This document shows, piece by piece, positions 1,662 to 5,662 of a DNA stretch of 24,000 nt (the first letter of the stretch is position 1; every line of letters begins with the position of its first letter). The position numbers and the translations under genes were made by a program. The stretch covers positions 1,123,487 to 1,147,486 of the forward strand of contig NZ_PYWK01000001.1 in the NCBI RefSeq assembly GCF_003049645.1. The letters run 5' to 3'. Source of the stretch: Metasolibacillus fluoroglycofenilyticus (GTDB taxonomy: Bacteria; Bacillota; Bacilli; Bacillales_A; Planococcaceae). Below the pieces are notes generated by a model that saw nothing but the letters and a program-made list of their open reading frames with translations, was not told where the DNA came from and did no database searches.

Positions 1662-2622
1662 AATATTGCAGCGCTTTTTAGCAGCGGCTGGTGAACCAAT
1701 AAGCGGCCAGCAGTTAGCCGACGAGCTACTCGTGTCAAGAACGGCTATTTGGAAGCATATGCAAGCGCTCCAACAGGATGGTTATACATTTGAAGTCATT
1801 AAGAAAAAGGGCTATAAATTAATTGCTAAATCAAATAGGCTTGATGAGATGCAAATTGCTGCCCATTTGAAGACGGCTCGCTATGGTCAAAAAATTTATC
1901 ATTTTGATGAGGTAGAGTCAACGCAAATTGTAGCGCACGAATTGATTCGTAATGGCGCGGCAGATGGCACGGTAGTCATTGCAGAAAAGCAAACAGCGGG
2001 ACGTGGTCGAATGCAGCGCCCGTGGGATTCGGCTGAAGGTCAAGGTGTTTGGATGACAACAATCATCCGCCCGAATATTTTACCGCATCAAGCACCGCAG
2101 TTTACACTTGTCGCTGCTGTTGCTCTTACACATGCGATAAGAGAAGTATGCCAAAACTTTAAGCCAGCAATTAAGTGGCCGAATGACATTTTAATTGACG
2201 GCAAAAAATGTGTCGGCATTTTAACGGAAATGGTGGCGGAAGCTGACCGAATACAAGCCCTCTTAATCGGTACAGGTATTAATGTCAATCAACAGCCAGA
2301 GGATTTTTCACAGGAGGTACGTGGCGTTGCAACATCGTTAGCCATTGAAGAAGGCAGAAAAATTGATCGAGCCCTTTTTGTTGCAAAATATCTCGGCCAT
2401 TTGGAACAGTTGAGTGATATCTATGTAAAAGAAGGCTTTGCTCCAATTAAAACACTTTGGGAAGCAGCATCAAACACAATTGGCAAGCATGTGCGTGCAA
2501 CGACATTACGCGAAATTATTGAAGGTCAAGCAATCGGTATTACAGAAGCGGGTGTTCTTGAAATTCGCACAGCAAATGGCGAAATCAAAAGCGTTTACTC
2601 AGCAGATATCGAAATTCAATGA
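1642..2622 (+). CDS. birA: Bifunctional biotin-protein ligase / biotin operon repressor BirA
   Basis: 326 aa. It has an N-terminal HTH region, the biotin-binding loop TAGRGRMQRPW and a KWPNDI motif. It overlaps the cca 3' end by 20 nt. Confidence 0.9.
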   Translation: MTSIKDKILQRFLAAAGEPISGQQLADELLVSRTAIWKHMQALQQDGYTFEVIKKKGYKLIAKSNRLDEMQIAAHLKTARYGQKIYHFDEVESTQIVAHELIRNGAADGTVVIAEKQTAGRGRMQRPWDSAEGQGVWMTTIIRPNILPHQAPQFTLVAAVALTHAIREVCQNFKPAIKWPNDILIDGKKCVGILTEMVAEADRIQALLIGTGINVNQQPEDFSQEVRGVATSLAIEEGRKIDRALFVAKYLGHLEQLSDIYVKEGFAPIKTLWEAASNTIGKHVRATTLREIIEGQAIGITEAGVLEIRTANGEIKSVYSADIEIQ

Positions 2623-2647
2623 AGCGGCAGATGGATGAGCGGAATTG

Positions 2648-2793
2648 GCAAATATATTTGAGAAGCCGCAAATAAACAAAGGCAAGTCGCAAATATATTT
2701 TAGAAAACGCAAATAACTTATAAAAAAGCGCAAATAAATCAATGAAATTTGCAGATATTCCCTAAGAAAAGTGCAAATATCTTCAAAATAATA
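2648..2793. repeat. Array of seven helically phased GCAAATA words
   Basis: Cores start at 2648, 2668, 2689, 2709, 2730, 2751 (variant GCAGATA) and 2773. Spacings are 20, 21, 20, 21, 21 and 22 bp. Only the 7-9 nt core is conserved between units. Confidence 0.8.
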
Positions 2794-2817
2794 ATTAAAA
2801 TTAATAAAACATTGTAC

Positions 2818-2846
2818 TGTACGTTTTCATCAAAACTTGTTATAGT
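2818..2846 (+). promoter_or_regulatory. Candidate sigma-A promoter with extended -10 (TGtTATAGT) and a weak -35
   Basis: TG lies at 2838-2839 and TATAGT at 2841-2846. The -35 position (2818-2823, TGTACG) is a poor match. This is the only promoter-like element between birA and panB. Confidence 0.35.
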
Positions 2847-2849
2847 ATG

Positions 2850-3163
2850 GCTAAGGACAGTATCTGTATAGAACTGTACCGATAGTGCAATTTAACTTGA
2901 TTCAGCAAAAGTCCCTTACTTTTAAAAATAGCGGGATGAATGCTGGAAAAGTAACTAAGCCAGAGGAGTGCTTAAACCCTAGCTGATTCAAGTTAAGCCT
3001 CCGGCGGATGTCACAGATTTTGAAGGGGAGTTTTCGAGTTAACTCGAAAAAATCTGGACACAATTACGTCGAGGCGTAATTGATTGAATAACAGTCTGCC
3101 TTGATCTAATTAGACAGGGACGGAAGAAAACGGAGCGTTCATAATTTTTACAGTACAACGCAA
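2850..3163 (+). promoter_or_regulatory. ORF-free, hairpin-rich RNA region: candidate panBCD leader or riboregulator, or an independent sRNA
   Basis: A long-range helix joins 2891-2906 to 2982-2997 (about 15 bp, 1 mismatch). It encloses a hairpin at 2916-2923/2947-2954. Further hairpins lie at 3031-3050 and 3061-3082 (8 bp each). No SD-led ORF is present. Confidence 0.4.
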
Positions 3164-3197
3164 CCCTTCTGTCCAATTTTGGATAGAAGGGTTTTTT
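3164..3197 (+). terminator. Strong intrinsic terminator immediately upstream of the panB RBS
   Basis: An 11-bp stem (CCCTTCTGTCC / GGATAGAAGGG, one G-U pair) with a 6-nt loop is followed by TTTTTT (3192-3197). It ends 19 nt before the panB SD (3217-3225). Confidence 0.85.
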
Positions 3198-3230
3198 ATG
3201 TTTTCTTCTCACACTAGAAGGAGGATTCAT

Positions 3231-4067
3231 ATGAAAACAACAAGTGAATTTTTGAAAATGAAGCAGCAAGGTGAAAAAATCGTAATGATTACAGCATACG
3301 ATTATCCGAATGCTAAATTTTCAGAGGATGCAGCAGTAGATATGATTTTAGTTGGTGATTCTTTAGGGATGGTTGTGCTTGGCTATGAGTCAACGATGCG
3401 TGTCACAGTCGATGATATGATTCATCATAGTAAAGCTGTGCGACGTGGCGCACCAAACACATTTATCGTCGTTGATATGCCATTCGGTTCTTATCATGGC
3501 GATATGAATGACACATTGAAAACGGCTGTACGCATGATGCAAGAAACAAATGCGAATGCATTGAAGCTTGAAGGAGCAGGCGATGTGATTCCTGTCATTA
3601 AAAAGCTAACAGATGCAGGCATTCCTGTCGTAGCACACCTAGGTTTATTGCCACAATCAGCAGGTGTACTTGGTGGCTACAAAGTGCAAGGAAAAACAGC
3701 AGAGCAAGCACAGCAATTAATTGCAGATGCGAAGGCTTGTGAGGCTGCAGGTGCAGCGGCAGTTGTTTTAGAATGTATCCCACATCAGCTAACAGAGGCG
3801 ATTTCACAAGCTTTAACAATCCCGACAATCGGTATTGGTGCGGGCGTAGAGGCAGATGGGCAAGTGCTTGTTTTCCATGACCTAGTGCAGTATGGCAAAC
3901 ATCATATCCCGAAATTTGTTAAAGCCTTCTCGCATGTAGGGGATGAAGTAGAGCATGGCATTACAAGCTATGTGCGTGAAGTGAAGGCGGGAACATTCCC
4001 AGCAGTGGAGCATCAATTTACAATGAAGGATGAAGAGCTTACCCAGCTTTACGGAGGCGTCAAATAA
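3231..4067 (+). CDS. panB: 3-methyl-2-oxobutanoate hydroxymethyltransferase (ketopantoate hydroxymethyltransferase)
   Basis: The ATG at 3231 is preceded by GAAGGAGGA. The N-terminus reads [26 protein letters not shown]...LVGDSLGMV. The track start at 3198 lies on the terminator U-tract and is rejected. Confidence 0.95.
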
Positions 4068-4919
4068 ATGAAAGTTGTAACAACAATTGCGGAATTAAAG
4101 CAATATGTTCATCAGGCAAAGAAAGAGCAAAAGTCAATTGGCTTAGTTCCGACGATGGGTTATTTACATGATGGACATTTAACGCTAGCTCGCACAGCAA
4201 AGGCAGACAATGATGTAGTCATTATGAGCATATTTGTTAATCCTACCCAGTTTGGACCGAATGAAGACTTTGAATCCTATCCGCGTGATTTACCGCGTGA
4301 TACAGCGTTAGCACAATCAGCAGGTGTCGATTTAGTTTTTGCTCCGAGCGTAGAGGAGATGTACCCAGCGGATGGCGGTATACAGTTACTGGCAGGACGC
4401 CAAGCGACAATTTTATGCGGTGCAAGTCGTCCGGGACATTTTGATGGTGTCATACAAGTCGTTGCAAAGCTATTTCATTTAGCTGAGCCGACGCGTGCTT
4501 ATTTCGGACAAAAAGATGCACAGCAAGTTGCTATTATTGAAACGATGGTACGTGATTTTAATTTTCCGCTAGAAATTCAAACAATTCCCATTGTTCGTGA
4601 GGAGGATGGACTTGCAAAATCGAGCCGCAATGTTTATTTGTCGGAGCAAGAACGAGCGCAAGCACCAGCGATTTTTGCGGCATTAAATTTAGCGCAGCAG
4701 CATTTTTTACAAACGAAAAATGCTGGGGAAGCAATTGGTATTGCAAAGCAGCATATTACAAAAAATACAGCAGGTCGCATTGATTATTTACAGCTTTTAA
4801 GCTATCCTGATTTAGCAATCGTCACACCACAAACGGAAAAATTTTTACTAGCAGTAGCTGTTTATATTGGTAAAACAAGATTAATTGATAATTTAATTTT
4901 TTCACTAAAAGGGGAATAA
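4068..4919 (+). CDS. panC: Pantoate-beta-alanine ligase (pantothenate synthetase)
   Basis: 283 aa with the motif PTMGYLHDGHLTL. The start codon abuts the panB stop. Confidence 0.95.
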   Translation: MKVVTTIAELKQYVHQAKKEQKSIGLVPTMGYLHDGHLTLARTAKADNDVVIMSIFVNPTQFGPNEDFESYPRDLPRDTALAQSAGVDLVFAPSVEEMYPADGGIQLLAGRQATILCGASRPGHFDGVIQVVAKLFHLAEPTRAYFGQKDAQQVAIIETMVRDFNFPLEIQTIPIVREEDGLAKSSRNVYLSEQERAQAPAIFAALNLAQQHFLQTKNAGEAIGIAKQHITKNTAGRIDYLQLLSYPDLAIVTPQTEKFLLAVAVYIGKTRLIDNLIFSLKGE

Positions 4920-4922
4920 ACA

Positions 4923-5306
4923 ATGTTTCGCATGATGATGAATAGTAAAATACATCGCGCACAAGTAACACAGGCAGATTTAAATTATGTTGGCTCTATT
5001 ACGATTGATGAGGATATTTTAGATGCGGTAGGAATGCTACCGAACGAAAAAGTGCATATCGTCAACAACAATAATGGTGCACGCTTTGAAACGTATATTA
5101 TCGCAGGTGAGCGAGGAAGCGGCGTTATTTGTGTGAATGGTGCAGCAGCACGACTTGTGCAAAAAGGCGATATCGTAATTATCATTTCATACGTCTATGT
5201 AGACGCCAACGAGGCTCGTGACCATAAGCCGACTGTGGCAATTATGGGAGAAAACAATACAATTAAACAAATGATTAGCTACGAGCCAGAAGCAACGGTG
5301 ATGTAG
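4923..5306 (+). CDS. panD: Aspartate 1-decarboxylase
   Basis: 127 aa. The N-terminus [25 protein letters not shown] contains the Gly-Ser self-processing site. Confidence 0.95.
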
Positions 5307-5311
5307 GAAAT

Positions 5312-5347
5312 AAAAAAGTGAAATCGCATTATGGTTTCACTTTTTTT
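5312..5347 (+). terminator. Intrinsic terminator of panBCD
   Basis: The stem GTGAAATC / GGTTTCAC is flanked by an A-run and followed by TTTTTTT. Confidence 0.8.
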
Positions 5348-5359
5348 CATCATATTTTC

Positions 5360-5388
5360 TTCCACAATTCATTCATTTATGTTACACT
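5360..5388 (+). promoter_or_regulatory. Candidate sigma-A promoter for the ABC-F leader
   Basis: TTCCAC (5360-5365), a 17-nt spacer and TACACT (5383-5388) preceded by TGt. Confidence 0.4.
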
Positions 5389-5422
5389 ATAAGCAATTCT
5401 ACTAGAACGGGGGTGAAAAAGA

Positions 5423-5563
5423 ATGATTCAAAACGCTATGACTACAGGTGTAAAAGTGGATACTGCAATGTACTTTGCACGTGTAATTACTTTTGATTTT
5501 GCGTCTAACGGGACAAGTGTGTCCTTTTTTAAGCAAATCAAAATACGAAACGTAGCGGATTAA
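5423..5563 (+). CDS. Candidate leader ORF (46 codons) in the ABC-F 5' leader
   Basis: The ATG at 5423 lies 6 nt after GGGGGTGA. Translation is MIQNAMTTGVKVDTAMYFARVITFDFASNGTSVSFFKQIKIRNVAD. The stop is at 5561-5563, just upstream of the antiterminator/terminator segments. It falls below the ORF-track size cutoff. Confidence 0.3.
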   Translation: MIQNAMTTGVKVDTAMYFARVITFDFASNGTSVSFFKQIKIRNVAD

Positions 5564-5587
5564 CCATTCTTTTTCACTATAGTGAGG

Positions 5588-5619
5588 AAAAGACTGCATG
5601 TTAATGTGCAGTCTTTTTT
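5588..5619 (+). terminator. Intrinsic terminator inside the 5' leader of the first ABC-F gene (attenuator)
   Basis: The stem GACTGCA / TGCAGTC (5592-5598 / 5607-5613) is extended by A4/U4 pairing and followed by a 6-U run. It lies about 40 nt upstream of the ABC-F start. Confidence 0.8.
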
Positions 5620-5662
5620 GTTGTTTAAAATGCTTTTTCCGCACGTTCTTGGAGGCATAATG

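Follow-up and report, generated by a model that had tools for sequence, protein, structure and literature searches.

We analysed a window of 24,000 nt from Metasolibacillus fluoroglycofenilyticus (contig NZ_PYWK01000001.1, positions 1,123,487 to 1,147,486; all coordinates below count from the first letter of this whole stretch), in which a spacer of 608 nt separates birA from panB, a gene of the panB-panC-panD operon for vitamin B5 (pantothenate) synthesis. Region 2838-3230 of this spacer is the cis-acting 5′ leader of panBCD. It carries both bulged-A hairpins of the pan motif (Rfam RF01749), held apart by an interspersed repeat of 194 nt, and we conclude, at a probability of about 0.8, that the leader is a member of this known RNA family that has been split by the inserted repeat. 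A previous reading of the same DNA from its letters alone (the sequence-only reading) had proposed an uncharacterised RNA for panBCD and had set the pan motif aside as a different element with no match here; neither statement survives the detection of both pan hairpins, of two partial RF01749 matches and of full matches in the orthologous leaders of relatives. Because the family matched is a related one and not an unrelated RNA, the regulatory part of the sequence-only reading stands, whereas its claim of novelty does not.

Two pan hairpins and the insertion between them

The pan motif consists of two stem-loops, each with two conserved bulged A, in the 5′ untranslated region (UTR) of panB-panC-panD (Weinberg et al. 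2010, Genome Biol 11:R31, PMC2864571). It occurs in Firmicutes including B. subtilis, where tandem hairpins joined by a short linker are the usual form (PMC2864571), and deltaproteobacteria naturally carry pan hairpins that stand alone (PMC2864571 supplement). The leader in the window shares the two bulged-A stem-loops, placed between a conserved promoter and panB and hence in the 5′ UTR of the panB-panC-panD operon, but differs from the usual form in the distance between them.

A scan of the whole window against Rfam at gathering thresholds returned zero matches. Such a scan of the leader had been suggested in the sequence-only reading; run permissively on 2560-3300, it gave two RF01749 matches, 3044-3127 (33.1 bits) and 2854-2943 (32.6 bits), both with E of about 1e-3 and both below the gathering score of 36.2 bits. 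Each of the two half-matches aligns one hairpin at high posterior probability, hairpin 1 in 2854-2943 and hairpin 2 in 3044-3127. RF01749 scores only these two sub-threshold halves because the 194-nt element lies in the linker and the model cannot bridge the insert. Full matches of 54.7–68.3 bits were obtained in 13 of 13 relatives tested, whose orthologous leaders are free of the insert and contain hairpins identical, or nearly so, to those of the window. The other weak Rfam matches of the permissive scan (PyrG leader, PyrR, L10 leader, microRNAs and small nuclear RNAs) lie far below their cut-offs, are centred on the terminator and were treated as chance; the PyrR match, for example, reaches 19.6 bits against a gathering score of 54.

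We scanned for hairpins with the architecture of a stem, a bulged A, a 2-bp stem, a loop and then the mirror image. All 10 scored pairs form in hairpin 2 and 9 of them in hairpin 1, with the A bulges at the expected positions in both, and both carry their two bulged A together with GUAUC...GAAC or GAUC...GAC cores. Comparison with the closest relatives shows that hairpin 1 is identical to that of 'Bacillus ndiopicus' FF3 (locus L001; 96% PanB identity), whose pan match passes the gathering score, and that hairpin 2 differs from its counterpart there in one base adjoining the loop; the hairpins of Metasolibacillus meyeri (L002; 95% PanB identity) and of L003 are likewise identical or near-identical to those of the window. 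The same pair of hairpins stands upstream of panB in nearly all Bacillales relatives scanned, among which the panB loci retrieved also cover Solibacillus, Lysinibacillus, Psychrobacillus, Caryophanon and many Bacillaceae.

The linker between hairpins 1 and 2 measures 215 nt in the window against 23–38 nt (median 28) in 33 relatives, the window being the sole outlier. In an alignment of the window with loci L001, L002 and L003 (A1), about 190 nt of the window have no counterpart at this site and face a clean gap, while the promoter, hairpins 1 and 2, the tail, the terminator, the GTTTTCTTC segment and the Shine-Dalgarno (SD) sequence are almost invariant across the four. The excess in the linker is fully accounted for by the 194-nt insert, whose bounds (2891-3084) follow from its end-to-end alignment with long-form copies of the same repeat in metagenomes (L187, L118). 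As judged from the alignment, the insertion is lineage-specific and postdates the split of this lineage from its closest sequenced relatives.

In minimum free energy (MFE) folds the insert forms two adjacent closed helical domains, a long left hairpin, P1, and a conserved 3′ module; with the closed helices side by side, its two ends should lie close in space. No terminator-like site was found inside 2891-3084. The helices at 2891-3082 had been read as part of the sensor, a view that does not hold, for all of them fall within the repeat that the closest relatives lack. As structures they exist, some of them one base away from where they had been placed. The long-range helix described between 2891-2906 and 2982-2997 forms with its 15 bp, at 2892-2906/2982-2996 in the MFE fold; the 8-bp hairpin that it encloses is present, shifted by one base (2917-2924/2948-2955), and lies outside the MFE fold; and the two 8-bp hairpins at 3031-3050 and 3061-3082 were recovered unchanged from both sequence and MFE, as parts of the 3′ module.

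We consider the insert to be most likely a tolerated, presumably neutral passenger outside the sensor, because (i) it is lineage-specific, folds on itself and contains no terminator-like site, with the flanking pan elements intact, and (ii) the pan leaders of other relatives also carry spacer insertions with the pairing partners retained. Lineage-specific insertions of 50–300 nt are present in the leaders of L005-L007, L011, L021, L022, L029 and L031, always in one of two spacers, that from tail to terminator or that from terminator to anti-Shine-Dalgarno (anti-SD) segment, and tail and anti-SD remain complementary. Another foreign element is lodged in a pan leader spacer at L039:2912-2977 (minus strand).

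Terminator, antiterminator and sequestration of the ribosome-binding site

The leader order of promoter, two hairpins, purine tail, terminator, anti-SD segment and SD is conserved in about 45 Bacillales leaders, which supports the earlier claim that panB is preceded by a leader terminator whose read-through is needed for expression. In the window the terminator stem has 14 pairs, 6 of them G-C, with a 4-nt loop and a T-run to 3197/3199; the site at 3162-3193 is the only terminator-like one in 2400-3500, where shuffled sequences give a mean of 0.6. The sequence-only reading had recognised this terminator at 3164-3197 with an 11-bp stem, and the stem proves longer. Of the 47 leaders in which hairpin 2 was located, 44 have a terminator whose 5′ arm is CCUUCUGUC-like, and this arm is complementary in the relatives' leaders to the 3′ arm of hairpin 2 and the tail. 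The GCGU...ACGC pair of the small hairpin between tail and terminator can also be read from the sequences of Planococcaceae relatives.

The antiterminator consists of GGACGGAAG (3118-3126) paired with CUUCUGUCC (3166-3174) over 9 bp (−15.6 kcal/mol). Its formation takes up 6 nt from the basal stem of hairpin 2, the conserved bulged A3120 among them, as well as 9 nt on the 5′ arm of the terminator, and a duplex of −10 kcal/mol or better is available in 38 of 44 leaders. That this pairing is mutually exclusive with the terminator had been proposed from the sequence and finds support in silico in MFE folds of the growing transcript. Transcripts ending at positions up to 3165 contain hairpin 2; at ends 3176-3180 hairpin 2 is opened and the antiterminator is formed; and at end 3197 hairpin 2 is present together with the terminator. 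At end 3215 a tail:anti-SD helix encloses the terminator, and at end 3232 hairpin 2 and the terminator are joined by an SD-sequestering hairpin in which UUCUUCU (3203-3209) pairs with AGAAGGA (3216-3222), a hairpin that is also part of the MFE fold of the full leader.

The purine tail following hairpin 2 is GGAAGAAAAC in Planococcaceae and of the AGAGGGAU type in Bacillaceae, and it covaries with the anti-SD segment across clades (tail:anti-SD combinations include GAAGAAAAC:GUUUUCUUC, GAAGAAUCGAU:AUCGAGUUCUUC, AGAGGGAUGAAAC:GUUUUAUCUCCUCU and AGAGGAUCGAAAC:GUUUCGUUACCCUCU). Pairing energies average −13.66 kcal/mol for matched and −10.20 kcal/mol for mismatched species pairs, with a permutation p of about 5e-5; these permutations of matched against mismatched pairs replaced mononucleotide shuffles, which are uninformative for pairing between a purine and a pyrimidine strand. 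The anti-SD segment is kept even in L002, L011 and L031, although insertions part it there from the terminator. The covarying tail:anti-SD helix is not described in the pan literature covered, and the text of the pan motif paper does not contain the platform of antiterminator, terminator and tail:anti-SD helix, its alignment marking only predicted terminators (PMC2864571).

We propose that the leader operates as an OFF switch, a specific mechanism that we favour, if only slightly, and of which we infer the direction and the identity of the factor. Hairpin 2 would act as an anti-antiterminator, because the antiterminator uses 6 nt of its basal stem including A3120. A factor acting in trans would clamp the bulged-A stem of hairpin 2, so that GGACGGAAG could not pair with the terminator 5′ arm CUUCUGUCC; the terminator (3162-3199) would then form and panBCD would be OFF, and in any RNA that had been read through the anti-SD segment GUUUUCUUCU would sequester the SD. 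With the factor absent, the antiterminator would form while the polymerase is at about 3176-3180 and transcription would continue, after which the purine tail GAAGAAAAC would capture the anti-SD segment and set the SD free (ON).

In the PyrR attenuation of the B. subtilis pyr operon, a factor stabilises an anti-antiterminator hairpin, upon which the terminator forms and the biosynthetic operon is turned off. The logic proposed for the pan leader is the same, with a clamped anti-antiterminator leading to the OFF state, by analogy and not by homology: the pan leader has no sequence or structural relationship to the pyr system and would add a layer of SD sequestration. The features of the leader are collected in Table 1.

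Table 1 Elements of the panBCD leader and of its insert, in window coordinates
Feature	Position	Strand	Details
Extended −10 promoter element TGtTATAGT	2838..2846	+	sequence and conservation
Pan motif hairpin 1	2854..2880	+	AGGACAGUAUC-UGUAUA-GAACUGUACC, two bulged A; full sequence AGGACAGTATCTGTATAGAACTGTACC; Rfam half-match and hairpin scan
Inserted interspersed repeat element, 194 nt, in the hairpin 1-hairpin 2 linker	2891..3084	+	left end TTTAACTT, right end GAGGCGTAATTGAT
Left module of the repeat, long hairpin P1	2892..2996	+	2892-2906 paired with 2982-2996, enclosing a domain of about 75 nt; MFE
Conserved 3′ module of the repeat	2995..3084	+	helices GCCUC/GAGGC, CAGAUUUU/AAAAUCUG, UUUUCGAG/CUCGAAAA; subterminal palindrome CAAUUACG/CGUAAUUG
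Pan motif hairpin 2	3096..3123	+	CUGCCUUGAUCU-AAUU-AGACAGGGACGG, two bulged A; full sequence CTGCCTTGATCTAATTAGACAGGGACGG; Rfam half-match and hairpin scan
Switching purine strand GGACGGAAGAAAAC	3118..3131	+	last 6 nt of hairpin 2 and conserved tail; pairs with terminator 5′ arm or anti-SD
Small spacer hairpin GCGUU...AACGC	3135..3161	+	between tail and terminator; MFE
Intrinsic terminator	3162..3199	+	stem 3162-3175 with 3180-3193, loop AUUU, U tract
Pyrimidine anti-SD segment GUUUUCUUCU	3200..3209	+	complementary to tail GAAGAAAAC (3123-3131) and to SD
panB SD and ATG	3216..3233	+	SD AGAAGGAGG 3216-3224, ATG 3231

Alternative explanations and meaning

Several observations weigh against a functional pan leader of this design. 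No contiguous RF01749 match in the window reaches the gathering score (33.1 and 32.6 against 36.2 bits), and the spacing of 215 nt could have impaired the cooperation of the two hairpins and so weakened or abolished regulation. The antiterminator shows conservation and not covariation (−12.23 kcal/mol for matched and −11.82 kcal/mol for mismatched pairs, p 0.047), its mean z against shuffled arms is only −1.7, and the permutation tests, for the antiterminator as for the tail:anti-SD helix, ignore phylogenetic relatedness. At equilibrium the state with hairpin 2 and the terminator is favoured over the antiterminator by about 12 kcal/mol; therefore, read-through has to be kinetic. A Geobacter pan RNA showed no modulation in in-line probing with 1 mM pantothenate, coenzyme A or beta-alanine (PMC2864571 supplement). 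Pan is a still-orphan cis-regulatory RNA whose factor may be a protein or a metabolite; a search of the later literature found no paper on a pan ligand or binding protein, and transcriptome papers on B. methanolicus and B. amyloliquefaciens go no further than listing the motif upstream of panBCD.

Were spacing critical, the insertion would have damaged the motif: the factor could no longer bind cooperatively to hairpins 215 nt apart, and panBCD would be constitutively terminated or read through. The tight bounds of the linker in the 33 relatives, with the window as the only outlier, indicate that spacing may matter, but we think this outcome unlikely, for hairpins, tail, terminator, anti-SD segment and SD have all stayed intact and barely differ from their L001 counterparts, panB, panC and panD are full-length, the self-folding insert with its adjacent P1 and 3′ module probably brings its ends close together, and single pan hairpins exist in deltaproteobacteria (PMC2864571 supplement). 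A different account of the factor would have the pan hairpins bind a small molecule directly, as a riboswitch of two small hairpins with a layout comparable to that of guanidine-II. The platform of anti-antiterminator, antiterminator, terminator and SD sequestration is typical of Bacillales riboswitches, and few candidate ligands have been tried so far according to the sources covered; on the other side stand the failure of pantothenate, coenzyme A and beta-alanine to modulate the RNA, the preference of Weinberg et al. for a dimeric protein, to them suggested by the simple, dimeric structure (PMC2864571), and the small number of conserved nucleotides in a plain bulged stem. We regard direct ligand binding as doubtful, though a serious contender.

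The remaining alternatives concern the nature of the RNA itself. Region 2850-3200 reaches −109.1 kcal/mol on folding (100 shuffles, z = −6.6), which together with the lack of any Rfam family at gathering score would suit a novel structured sensor extending over the whole of 2838-3230, helices 2891-3082 included, and unrelated to the pan motif. Yet these helices are missing in the closest relatives, which keep all other leader elements, and belong to a repeat with at least 113 distinct copies in unrelated contexts, and the sequence that remains is a canonical pan motif, leaving a novel sensor with a very small chance. It is also improbable, if less extremely so, that the terminated product (2854-3199, about 345 nt) serves targets of its own as an independent small RNA, read-through into panB being incidental. 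A strong terminator does follow directly on a promoter-proximal structured RNA, but the element always lies immediately upstream of pan genes, and the covariation of its tail with the anti-SD segment of panB links it in cis to the translation of that gene. The promoter scan adds that no promoter-like site was seen between 3199 and 3231 from which panB could be transcribed, a weak negative as the same scan misses the conserved extended −10 element upstream.

The leader is an atypical, insertion-split member of the known, still orphan pan family and does not constitute a new class of RNA. Because a mobile-type repeat splits the motif, Rfam scanning at the standard gathering thresholds overlooks it entirely, and other two-part motifs could be hit likewise. 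For the pan motif, an orphan since 2010 as a regulator of vitamin B5 synthesis, the conserved platform offers an explicit and testable OFF-switch model. The split leader of the window and the insert-free leader of 'Bacillus ndiopicus' FF3 together constitute a natural experiment on hairpin adjacency; a functional switch at 215 nt would mean that the hairpins need no fixed spacing and would constrain the nature of the pan factor.

The repeat family and the surrounding sequence

A second copy of the repeat family, of about 204 nt and in the same orientation, lies in the pan leader of Metasolibacillus meyeri (L002:2763-2969), after the U tract of the terminator and ahead of the anti-SD segment; its likeness to the insert of the window is in the 3′ half. 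By their positions the two are independent insertions at different sites in the pan leaders of sister species. A blastn search of plasmids gave matches in only 2 records, one from Bacillus sp. DX3.1 and one from B. pseudomycoides; on the latter plasmid a related element (L083:1468-1606) lies between genes. The copies in the window, in L002 and on the plasmid supplied, with their last 29 nt, the 3′-end pattern GGAC-N10-CGAGGCRTAATTGAT, which retrieved at least 120 metagenome stretches. The metagenome copies share a sharp right end (...GAGGCRTAATTGAT) and a 3′ module of about 92 nt with compensatory changes at 8 of 25 predicted pairs; the P1 hairpin (TTTAACTTnnTTCAGC...GCTGAnnnAAGTTAA) is also found in them, and the left hairpin of copies begins TTTAACTT. 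The internal loop GAAAGGAG is conserved in the repeat and the subterminal palindrome CAATTAYGCC/GGCRTAATTG covaries. Copies occur in a short form (about 115-140 nt), in a long form (about 195-205 nt) and with nested extra modules in the terminal hairpin (L083, L084-L203).

A covariance model built from 29 metagenome copies with the window excluded (R1) scored 90.9 bits (E 1.9e-22) on window positions 2995-3084, 33.5 bits on L002 and 114.1 bits on the plasmid copy L083, and found no further copy in the window or in 58 panB loci. Likewise, blastn of the insert against the window and 80 panB loci found no copy beyond a similarity of 42 nt to L002. Among the matches listed, 110 of the 113 unique copies are intergenic, and both neighbouring genes lie on the strand of the element in 41 cases against both on the opposite strand in 4. 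Copies often end a few nucleotides before the SD of the next gene. No transposase-like or TnpB open reading frame (ORF) stands next to the copies in the contigs examined, no constant target sequence or duplication was found beside the copies, whose left flanks are AT-rich and variable, and neither Rfam (including its IS605-type RNAs) nor a phage collection gave a match to the repeat; a full-text search with 15-20-mers found no paper containing the sequence.

Several candidates were rejected along the way. Long ORFs across a few copies are read-through frames or, for L098, a chance match of the pattern in a gene, and the two pattern matches in viral contigs, both at the end of a coding sequence, were judged to be chance as well. 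A short peptide ORF behind GAAAGGAG was dropped, its start codon not being conserved in the window or in L111-type copies. TTGAT does not qualify as an ISDra2-like target, as the conserved left end TTTAACTT extends upstream of it and other copies have TTCTT in its place. A non-autonomous element of IS200/IS605 type was rejected too, with no fixed target tetra- or pentanucleotide and no Y1 transposase or TnpB associated.

One class with which the insert invites comparison is that of the IS200/IS605-derived palindrome-associated transposable elements. Like these, it is bounded by a hairpin at either end, stops sharply on the right, is strongly biased in orientation with respect to the neighbouring genes, and lacks terminal inverted repeats and a target-site duplication; unlike these, it has no constant left-end target, no TnpA/TnpB gene and no match to an Rfam IS605-type RNA, so that the likeness is one of mere resemblance. 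By kind the insert resembles repeats of the MITE type (miniature transposable elements with inverted repeats) such as bcr1-bcr3 of the Bacillus cereus group (Okstad 2004; Kristoffersen 2011; summarised in PMC3446304 and PMC6542083), to which we liken it by description and not by consensus sequence: these too are described as short (100-400 bp), structured and intergenic, often situated in UTRs or operon spacers and co-transcribed with genes. The most abundant of them, bcr1, reportedly has copies on chromosomes as well as plasmids (PMC3446304, PMC6542083), whereas the repeat of the insert was found in only 2 plasmid records and, compared with the published descriptions, is without TTTAT flanks; the small number of plasmid records argues against its being bcr1.

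No Rfam family and no named repeat matched the insert, and two independent insertions occurred in the pan leaders of sister species. On this basis we suggest, tentatively and as a possibility rather than a probability, that the insert represents undescribed, strand-biased, structured repeats of Bacillales that land repeatedly in regulatory leaders, with the pan switch here still functional across 215 nt. Abundant, structured and absent from Rfam, the family may merit a description of its own.

As for the start of the leader, nearly all relatives have a TGnTATAnT element 6-8 nt upstream of hairpin 1, and this fixed distance bears out the earlier assignment of TGtTATAGT as the promoter of the leader, even though a generic sigma-70 scan does not flag it, owing to its weak −35. 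From the position of the promoter, transcription probably starts at about 2853-2854, the first base of hairpin 1. Within the −35 region, CTGTACGTTTTC (2816-2827) is conserved in the leaders of Planococcaceae, not in those of Bacillaceae. Its similarity both to the anti-SD segment (GTTTTCTTC) and to ACTGTAC, the 3′ arm of hairpin 1, may be coincidental, or the sequence may serve as a DNA operator. Further upstream, six CGCAAATA boxes lie between the birA stop and the pan promoter (2648-2779), spaced alternately by 20 and 21 nt with one gap of 43 nt; Tandem Repeats Finder reports the array with a period of 41 and 2.2 copies. In L001 and L002 this spacer holds similar arrays, of 7 and 8 CGCAGATAA boxes respectively; the loci of Solibacillus and Lysinibacillus have none. 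Boxes placed two helical turns apart suggest an array to which a protein binds.

The genes of the window around the leader are cca (507-1661), birA (1642-2622), panB (3231-4067), panC (4068-4919), panD (4923-5306) and a gene for an ABC-F protein. All six products score above the cut-offs of their NCBIfam models, those of panB, panC and panD as equivalogs. The birA-panB spacer contains no conserved ORF, in agreement with the sequence-only reading, which had given its length, the birA stop and the panB ATG correctly. Downstream of the operon, 5307-5620 opens with a terminator-like hairpin of panD at about 5318-5346, followed by an ORF of 46 codons (5423-5563), and terminator-like hairpins at 5510-5525 and 5586-5619 stand just ahead of or overlap the GTG (5582) listed as the start of the ABC-F gene. 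The segment looks like the leader-peptide attenuator of an ABC-F gene of the antibiotic-resistance type, and the true ABC-F start probably lies further downstream than 5582.

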